Virus record (IMG/VR): IMGVR_UViG_3300033143_002031
Span: 32,001 to 96,000 of that record
Source of the DNA: a virus
Length of the DNA stretch: 64,000 nucleotides
Reading direction: 5' to 3' (one strand)
The position numbers were made by a program, and so were the translations under genes. Below, piece by piece: positions 63,275-63,682 of the stretch (positions within the stretch are counted from its first letter, which is position 1; each line of letters starts with the position of its first letter). A model generated the notes under the pieces. It was not told the origin of the DNA. It ran no database searches and worked only from the letters and a program-made list of their open reading frames with translations.

Positions 63275-63302
63275 AAAAGCCGCCTCGGTTTCCCGGGGCG
63301 GC
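63275..63302 (-). terminator. intrinsic terminator/attenuator upstream of the tRNA array
   Basis: GCCGCCCCGG-GAAA-CCGAGGCGGC-TTTT. Confidence 0.75.
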
Positions 63303-63380
63303 TCTCGCGTGGTGCGTGTGGTGCGAGAGCCTTACCCGGGGCTACCCTCCTGGAGCGCGATGGCAGCATAAAACACGGTA

Positions 63381-63410
63381 TTACCGCCATCGGAGGGTAG
63401 ACACGTCCAT
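63381..63410 (-). CDS. putative leader peptide MDVSTLRWR
   Basis: 9-codon uORF embedded in the leader hairpin upstream of the terminator. Confidence 0.45.
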   Translation of the reverse strand: MDVSTLRWR

Positions 63411-63682
63411 GAGGACGGTCGTTTGACCTCCGTGCGCTTCAACCGGGTATGTTCGATATGCCGTTGCATCGTGCTTCTCGGTAGCTCCCGGAAGGTGATG
63501 GACCTCCCGCTCGCATCTCTCACTGTGTCAAGCGCAAACCTCAGAGTCAAGCGGAAAAAGCGCACCGCTGTCACTTTTTCCTGGCTCTTTGGTACGTACT
63601 GCTCTTGTACTTCTGTGGGAGAGGTGATCCCGGCTCCAAGACCGGCGACCAATGGTTGCGAAATGGGCCGTGACGATTGCTC

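Follow-up and report, generated by a model that had tools for sequence, protein, structure and literature searches.

Amino-acid attenuators such as the trpL, hisL, leuL, pheL, thrL and ilv leaders combine a short leader open reading frame (ORF) with two mutually exclusive hairpins, an antiterminator (AT) and a terminator (T). An upstream segment can sequester the antiterminator strand, the role of region 1:2 in trp, and a ribosome at the leader stop masks that strand so that the terminator forms. Classical attenuators use slow codons, as in the leu leader. Here we describe a leader of this general design that precedes an array of 39 tRNA genes in a 64,000-nucleotide stretch of viral DNA (the window), which corresponds to bases 32001-96000 of the 184,744 bp IMG/VR record IMGVR_UViG_3300033143_002031 (about 63% GC). 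We propose, with a probability of about 45%, that this leader is a translation-coupled (leader-peptide) transcription attenuator of the tRNA operon with a 45-codon ORF as its sensor, and the proposed attenuation logic, slow codons included, is of the trp type. The locus differs from the amino-acid attenuators in its output, which is 39 tRNAs and not enzymes, in its ORF, which at 45-47 codons is three times longer and samples all 20 amino acids, and in the position of the anti-antiterminator (AAT) strand, which lies upstream of the ORF and not inside it. All coordinates are positions in the window, and leader and tRNA array are on the minus strand.

Other described leaders share part of this design. 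In the arrest leaders ErmCL/ErmBL, TnaC, SecM and MsrDL, ribosome occupancy of the leader ORF likewise sets downstream expression. Leaders of this nascent-peptide class rely on an arrest peptide that is conserved and, in most cases, on a ligand as well (PMC8429421, PMC10314930), whereas the R-W-R motif to which a first-pass annotation of this DNA, made by a model from the letters alone, attributed ribosome arrest is not conserved here. T-box riboswitches possess leaders of about 250 nt with an antiterminator/terminator switch and report tRNA charging, but the present leader contains no specifier loop or T-box bulge and does not match RF00230, and the targets of T-boxes are aminoacyl-tRNA synthetase and amino-acid genes rather than tRNA genes. 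The Sinorhizobium rnTrpL/peTrpL system is similar in that termination yields a leader RNA that is itself stable and structured, and in that the leader peptide may have its own function (PMC6614838, PMC7968998). Lambda PR'-qut-tR' (6S transcript) and HK022 put also place a terminator behind a phage promoter and a leader of about 200 nt, ahead of a long operon that requires read-through. In those systems, however, Q protein or put RNA acts on RNA polymerase and no competing antiterminator hairpin exists, whereas an antiterminator hairpin in cis and an ORF are present here.

Phage tRNA arrays have been described as counter-measures to tRNA-targeting defences and host tRNA loss (PMC10264068, PMC11555353, PMC11464382). 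The stable RNAs of the T4 tRNA cluster (species 1/2; rnaC, rnaD) resemble the present leader by position only. A full-text literature search did not find leader-peptide attenuation of tRNA genes described in a phage or bacterium. If our reading is true, it would extend trp-type attenuation from one amino acid to overall decoding capacity, with tRNA genes as the output, and the leader would represent a compact natural part, about 250 nt long, short and modular, that reports ribosome speed.

Mutually exclusive hairpins in a conserved leader

The tRNA array spans 63197 to 57489 on the minus strand and consists of 39 genes (ARAGORN). We consider 63198-63752 a divergent control region because it is flanked by the minus-strand array and a plus-strand gene of the DUF5662 family:

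63123..63197, minus strand: tRNA-Lys(UUU), first gene of the array (ARAGORN and Rfam; syntenic in all relatives)
63753..64000, plus strand: divergent DUF5662 gene, 169 aa, running off the window (Pfam PF18907, E = 7.5e-37)

With the DUF5662 gene and its protein as synteny anchor, we identified syntenic relatives on one IMG/VR contig (L003) and on four metagenome contigs (L019, L020, L021 and L022). Together with the window these are the six homologues compared below; a further contig, L018, equals L003 over the 900 bases compared and is not counted. All six share the gene order DUF5662 gene, divergent promoter region, leader and tRNA-Lys(UUU) array. Across the leader region (63198-63560) the relatives are 72-86% identical to the window (blastn). 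The core at 63531-63275 is near-identical between the window and L003, mean column identity of the whole aligned region is 79%, and by this alignment conservation is far higher in the leader than in the flanking sequence. Searches of 50,697 GenBank phages returned zero matches to the leader (blastn) or to a neighbouring 681-aa protein (tblastn), and the viral contig collection holds zero relatives of that protein. Exact-pattern scans of viral and genome contigs with leader and tRNA-Lys motifs yielded only the L003 contig beyond chance; the matches in L014, L015 and L017 were dismissed as chance.

Two overlapping hairpins occupy the 3' part of the leader:

63292..63340, minus strand: antiterminator hairpin AT, composed of CCCGGG, bulge UAA, GGCUCUCGC, a 14-nt variable loop, GCGAGAGCC, GC and CCCGGG
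63266..63302, minus strand: predicted intrinsic terminator T, with hairpin 63302-63279, U-tract 63278-63275 and a conserved CGU downstream

The first-pass annotation had proposed both elements, the former as CCCGGG-TAA-GGCTCTCGC ... GCGAGAGCC-GC-CCCGGG at 63340-63292 and the latter as an overlapping terminator with a U-run, and both are indeed found there. The 3' arm of AT (63308-63292) shares positions 63302-63292 with the 5' arm of T and the two hairpins therefore cannot coexist. AT has an energy of -26 to -34 kcal/mol across all six homologues. The T stem-loop (GCCGCC-C-CGG GAAA CCG-A-GGCGGC) is also conserved in all six, with an energy of -18 kcal/mol in the window and -15 to -18 kcal/mol across the set, so that AT is the more stable structure by 8-16 kcal/mol. 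The stems of AT are kept while its loop varies with insertions and deletions, and in L019 the inner stem carries a compensatory C-G to U-A change and is lengthened to 11 bp. In L021, T has lost exactly one base pair (CGG/CCG to CG/CG). The terminator tail contains 3-6 U across homologues and the CGU that follows it is invariant; in an extended form of T, U-tract and CGU pair with ACGCGAGA. A simple terminator scan did not flag T because its stem has a 1x1 mismatch. Taken together, the stem-keeping changes, the single lost pair and the invariant CGU are comparative evidence that both helices are real, and T probably terminates transcription. The minimum free energy (MFE) structures of transcripts truncated before the 3' arm of T contain AT in all six homologues.

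The full leader (63521-63264) is strongly folded (z = -5.3). Its predicted upstream elements are:

63489..63509, minus strand: P1, a 5' local hairpin CGGGAGGU / ACCUUCCG with loop CCAUC, from the MFE structure
63487..63510, minus strand: AAT strand, in long-range pairing with 63340-63323, the 5' arm of AT
63341..63485, minus strand: rod domain of 145 nt, the ORF folded on itself, closed by GCUACC/GGUAGC (z = -3.9)

P1 is present in the MFE of the truncated transcripts of five homologues (window, L003, L022, L020 and L019), the 5' end of L021 folding otherwise. Both partners of one of its pairs are changed (G-C to A-U), and a G-U pair is replaced by G-C in L022 and L020. The 3' arm of P1 is also part of the AAT strand, whose pairing with AT extends the rod coaxially. 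The full-length MFE combines AAT and T in five of six homologues, and L021 retains AAT complementarity despite its changed 5' sequence. The rod architecture recurs in the independent MFE structures of all six, with a few pairs changed on both sides in L019, and in transcripts cut before the 3' arm of T it forms in every homologue except L020. It contains a hairpin at 63432-63391 built from CGGAGG/CCUCCG and an apical CGUCC-UCAU-GGACG.

Folding 63435-63265 alone gives exactly the two hairpins of the first-pass annotation (z = -4.4), namely AT and an upstream hairpin 1 in which CTACCCTCC (63400-63392) pairs with GGAGGGTAG (63350-63342) and GATGGCGG with CTGCCATC, the latter with one G-U pair. 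The arms are complementary as described, but hairpin 1 is not favoured in the full leader, where it lies 4 to 18 kcal/mol above the MFE with an ensemble probability of at most 0.02. There its arms pair elsewhere, CCUCCG with CGGAGG and GGUAGC with GCUACC at 63485-63480. Because the arms are invariant, hairpin 1 is uninformative on conservation either way.

The predicted rod brings two invariant motifs, GGUUGAAGC and NAAUACCG (63376-63384 and 63437-63445, minus strand), opposite one another as a 4-bp helix with a symmetric, purine-rich internal loop beside it. Their conservation exceeds codon requirements and they could represent a tertiary or protein contact. A 6S-like interpretation of the rod was rejected: there is no central bubble, a terminator hairpin lies 3' of the rod and no Rfam match is found.

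A 45-codon reading frame that ends within the antiterminator

Most of the rod is occupied by a single reading frame:

63332..63469, minus strand: candidate leader-peptide ORF, 45 codons plus TAA, starting with M-Q-R and ending with LQEGSPG*

We compared three translated frames in all six leaders. The ATG at 63469 is invariant, ORF length is 45-47 codons, and the stop (TAA in the window, TAG elsewhere) falls at the same place in all six homologues, where its three bases (63334-63332) form the bulge in the 5' arm of AT. Alignment gaps measure 3, 3 and 6 nt inside the ORF versus 2, 1, 2, 1, 4, 1 and 2 nt outside it. In the frame of the ORF, NG86 ratios of non-synonymous to synonymous substitution (dN/dS) are 0.34-0.62 for 14 of 15 pairs, L022-L020 being at 1.08. 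Off-frame values range from 0.95 to 7.6 for offset 1 and from 0.63 to 2.7 for offset 2 and are split between roughly 1-8 for close pairs and roughly 0.6-1.5 for pairs with L019. Substitutions that are synonymous in the ORF frame include GGT/GGC, GCT/GCC, CTC/CTT, TCA/TCG, CCC/CCT/CCA and CGG/AGG, and the variable outer-stem base of AT (C/U/A) falls on the wobble position of a Pro codon. A column-shuffle test on synonymous counts gave 58 against 61 +/- 16 and is uninformative since the variable columns are clustered.

Homologues of the encoded peptide exist beyond the six DNA loci. A profile search (HMMER) of 1.84 billion proteins identified three more, P0125, P0126 and P0130, with 45-58% identity, each with a Met aligned to the ORF start and the same C-terminus. 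Conserved peptide residues are RLK, RPS, W, C, PS, NT and QEGSPG. A word-index protein search with the 45-aa peptide gave no matches, and the peptide matches no Pfam or PHROG family. An 11-residue match (RPSSWTCLPSD) found by pattern scan in a Bryobacterales metagenome-assembled genome (CBDCHL010000002.1; L096:1501-1548) was judged to be chance and rejected because no tRNA is nearby and there is no further similarity. The invariant ...SPG-stop C-terminus might, as a speculation, slow termination; its conservation is inseparable from RNA-level constraint.

The start region of the ORF is mostly unpaired in folded nascent transcripts. GC content at third codon positions is 0.61-0.70 versus 0.81 in phage genes, and all seven His, Cys, Asp, Asn, Phe and Tyr codons of the window ORF end in U, a rare choice with a relative use of 0.11-0.22. 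Overall, we consider it probable that the 45-codon ORF is coding, and it may be translated.

The first-pass annotation had assigned the sensing function to a different upstream ORF (uORF):

63381..63410, minus strand: nine-codon uORF MDVSTLRWR*, in the offset-2 frame of the 45-codon ORF; unconserved

This uORF is where it was placed, from ATG at 63410 to TAA at 63381, but neither its length nor its sequence is conserved, and a nine-codon ORF is unremarkable by chance. It comprises nine codons in the window, 22 in L022 and 24 in L019, the latter two reading through to a TAG inside GGGTAG, and seven in L003, L021 and L020, where TGG is replaced by TAG so that it stops after ...TLR. Its start is GTG in L022 and L020, a change that is synonymous (TCA to TCG) in the overlapping longer ORF, and between the window and L019 all differences in the shared uORF codons are non-synonymous. 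The differing ends imply different ribosome footprints and structural effects and are therefore ill-suited to one conserved mechanism. A GGAGG lies 15 nt upstream of the uORF ATG, and this Shine-Dalgarno sequence (CGGAGG, 63432-63427) pairs with the uORF's own codons 5-7 (CCUCCG, 63396-63391), the probability of the GGAGG/CCUCC pairing being 0.94-0.99. The AUG is located in the loop of the CGUCC-UCAU-GGACG hairpin, which is kept in all six homologues. L019 retains both helices of this region with changed sequence, as a 9-bp GGAGGGUAU/AUACCCUCC helix and as CGACC/GGUUG with a U-A to A-U swap. The R-W-R motif occurs only in the window among the six homologues and no conserved arrest peptide emerged. 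The nine-codon uORF is thus probably incidental. What stands of the proposed attenuator is the conserved pair of mutually exclusive hairpins in front of the array, without uORF sensor or R-W-R motif; ribosome sensing as a general idea remains the best reading, and its route through the uORF is contradicted by the comparative data.

The 45-codon ORF contains no run of one regulatory codon and no cluster of cognate codons, which is where it deviates most from classical attenuators. All 20 amino acids are instead present in eight of nine peptides, comprising the six DNA homologues and two of the three distant ones, the third lacking Asp only, which suggests a general translation sensor. The chance of finding all 20 in a 45-mer is about 1% given phage composition and 0.9% among real 45-residue windows of the phage's proteins. 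Losses of His, Tyr, Asp and Phe at one position in L019 and the distant members are accompanied by the same residue elsewhere in the peptide; with the identical positions fixed and the rest redrawn, the p values are 0.10, 0.07, 0.03 and 0.11. We treat the property as a hypothesis because it was noticed post hoc and the lineages are not independent. With a codon for every amino acid, many of them rare and U- or A-ending, a shortage of any single charged tRNA would delay the ribosome, for example upon attack by a host anticodon nuclease or a tRNA-depleting defence. The ORF would then be a pan-amino-acid translation-capacity sensor through which any charged-tRNA shortage switches on a replacement tRNA set. 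We hold this extension tentatively and regard it as somewhat unlikely; if true, it would establish a feedback loop from tRNA supply to tRNA gene transcription through a leader peptide.

The attenuation model and competing explanations

The 5' arm of AT begins with the last two codons of the ORF (CCC GGG) and continues through the stop into the 9 nt that follow (GGCUCUCGC). With the stop codon in the A site, a ribosome footprint to +12 nt would extend as far as 63322, where this arm ends. When a ribosome at the stop is represented as a mask in partition-function folding, which models geometry only, the probability of T is 0.98 and that of AT is 0 in all six homologues, whereas without the mask AT is dominant (L019 and L022) or the two are mixed. 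In the proposed mechanism, a ribosome that reaches the stop promptly would cover the 5' arm of AT, T would form and transcription would stop before tRNA-Lys. A ribosome delayed in the ORF by charged-tRNA shortage, rare codons or translation stress would leave the arm free and AT, which is more stable and made earlier, would form and allow RNA polymerase to read through into the 39 tRNA genes. In untranslated RNA, the rod and the AAT pairing (63510-63487 with 63340-63323) would sequester the 5' arm of AT in most homologues and thereby favour T. We infer the direction of the switch to be that slow translation results in read-through.

Several observations weigh against this reading. The dN/dS of 0.35-0.6 in the ORF indicates only moderate constraint, and the excess of third-position changes is weak (21/21/30). 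Codon usage of the ORF is two standard deviations below the phage mean and non-coding DNA would look alike, the frame is open well upstream of the ATG, and the Shine-Dalgarno sequence of the ORF is weak (GAGAAG, 4 nt upstream of the ATG). The peptide homologues come from called ORFs, so that relatives with a broken frame would go unseen. The DNA homologues number only six, of which four are close. Covariation over the six sequences is weak and non-significant, with four pairs changed on both sides and 62 of 500 shuffles reaching the observed score. The U-tract of T is short, with 3-4 U in five of six homologues, and AAT is absent in L019. Stalls simulated at several mid-ORF positions raise AT, with the exception of L003, where equilibrium folding does not predict AT.

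A competing explanation is a ribosome-independent RNA switch, in which a ligand bound to the 145-nt rod shifts the balance between P1 plus AT, giving read-through, and AAT plus T, the reading frame being incidental. Candidate ligands would be small molecules, proteins of phage or host, and RNAs such as tRNA. The very strong fold, the rod common to six independent MFE structures, and invariant unpaired motifs (GGUUGAAGC opposite NAAUACCG, and GAGAAG) are all consistent with such a switch, as are the compatibility of the P1/AAT alternative with the changes in L022 and L020, the weak Shine-Dalgarno sequence and the atypical codon usage. We nevertheless consider this explanation unlikely. It leaves unexplained the gaps inside the frame, all multiples of three, the fixed stop in the AT bulge, the dN/dS below 1 in one frame only and the peptide homologues that start and end in the same way, and it is further weakened by the lack of AAT in L019. 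A cmscan of 63000-64000 (E <= 10) reached no Rfam gathering threshold except for tRNA, the other hits being small RNAs at chance level; T-box (RF00230) gave no match, 6S, Y RNA and known cis-regulatory leaders were rejected, and the best non-tRNA match, RcsR1, scored 24.6 bits versus a gathering score of 60.

The coding signatures and conserved residues are what an ordinary small protein gene (45-47 aa), its peptide serving a separate function, would also display. If such a gene were followed by a leaky terminator, as the short U-tract could suggest, the tRNAs would be expressed by constitutive partial read-through and AT would be mere structure. This is quite unlikely given that the stop is embedded, in all six homologues, in a hairpin mutually exclusive with T, and that AT is stable enough for T to be rare unless the 5' arm of AT is masked. 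The rare codons and strong synonymous-site conservation near the 3' end of the ORF point to RNA-level constraint, and the peptide is without family match.

A stable structured small RNA, consisting of rod and 3' hairpin and acting in trans, could be freed by termination or by RNase P at tRNA-Lys. The terminated product would be compact, about 245 nt long and protected by its 3' hairpin, and there is documented precedent for attenuator RNAs that act in trans (PMC6614838, PMC7968998). In L020 (2302-2330, minus strand) the tRNA starts 19 nt past T, so RNase P would release the entire leader, with a hairpin at its end. As an explanation of the locus a small RNA is improbable, since it does not by itself account for the coding signatures and has no family match; it is compatible with the attenuator reading rather than exclusive of it.

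The stalling of ribosomes on MDVSTLRWR at an R-x-R motif as the control of AT and T is very improbable, for although the uORF exists and the AT/T pair is real, the motif is confined to the window, lengths (7-24 codons) and starts (ATG or GTG) vary, its Shine-Dalgarno sequence and AUG are sequestered, and base changes in it are synonymous in the 45-codon frame.

A probable promoter of the tRNA operon and related elements in the window

A candidate promoter precedes the leader:

63522..63550, minus strand: probable promoter of leader and tRNA operon, by fit to -35 and -10 boxes; TTGAC boxes invariant in six homologues

Its -35 box TTGACT (63550-63545) is separated by 17 nt, the last two of them TG (63530-63529), from a -10 box CACAGT (63527-63522), which is CAGGCT in two relatives. 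A copy of the -35 box that recurs in this phage, GTTTGCGCTTGACA (63539-63526), overlaps the promoter, and both TTGAC boxes, the TG and CAnnnT are invariant in the six homologues. The transcription start site probably lies near 63515, where tight conservation begins, and the leader transcript would run for about 245 nt from there to the terminator. The second TTGACA (63531-63526) was rejected as a -35 box: nothing resembling a -10 box lies 16-18 nt downstream, and the 5' arm of P1, with its pair changed on both sides, would escape transcription.

The tRNA array appears to depend on this promoter. No promoter motif lies between terminator and tRNA-Lys in the window or in the spacers of the relatives, and zero phage-type or sigma-70-type promoters are present on the minus strand of the array. 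A start site downstream of the terminator, which would argue against an attenuator, is therefore unlikely. The spacer between terminator and tRNA-Lys is not conserved and measures about 77 nt in the window, about 44 nt in three relatives and 19 nt in L020, where the array must consequently be transcribed through the leader. On the sequence evidence, the leader transcript is the sole transcript able to feed the tRNA array.

A hairpin of 7 bp (CCCUGAG/CUCAGGG) is present at 63195-63214 on the minus strand, and its 3' arm takes in the first three bases of tRNA-Lys(UUU). The equivalent in L003 (CCCGGAG/CUCCGGG) contains a compensatory change, and the four relatives whose spacers are shorter lack the hairpin. 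It may influence how RNase P matures the first tRNA.

Another tRNA locus of the window, at 14116-14252 on the plus strand, has the same layout, with, in order, a promoter (TTGACA, 16 nt, TAGGTT), an ORF and a hairpin. The ORF has seven codons (MTTASRH*); the hairpin (14213-14248) is strong, resembles a terminator with a U6 tail and directly borders the first tRNA-like gene of this 14-kb locus. No competing antiterminator is obvious in its MFE structure (z = -1.7).

The window contains 23 copies of the recurrent -35 box motif, against an expectation of 3.9, nearly all of them on the plus strand; on the minus strand near the array the motif is found only at the leader. It belongs to a recurrent promoter with at least 17 plus-strand copies, GTTTGCTCTTGACA, 16-17 nt and TAGGCT, or in looser form GTTTGCTCTTGAC(A/G/C/T), 16-17 nt (often ending in TG) and TAGGCT or TAGGGT, which is of use for annotating the early transcription units of the phage. 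About 10-15 nt past many of these promoters lies a repeated 5'-untranslated-region (5'-UTR) module, a short hairpin (CGGGGAUG..UUCCCCG, or GGCGGAUGACUUCCGCC) abutting the Shine-Dalgarno sequence GAAGGAGG:

11179-11215, 14891-14927, 18631-18667, 20724-20760, 26635-26671, plus strand: recurrent promoter, examples by motif
29182-29215, 31142-31178, 42971-43007, 56972-57005, 63675-63712, plus strand: recurrent promoter, further examples by motif
11222-11250, 20765-20795, 31183-31213, 63716-63747, plus strand: 5'-UTR module, examples of the repeat; also G000:C1:63180-63213

Early genes may share this module as an element for translation or stability, or as a site for protein binding. In the tRNA leader, P1 resembles a diverged copy of the module hairpin.

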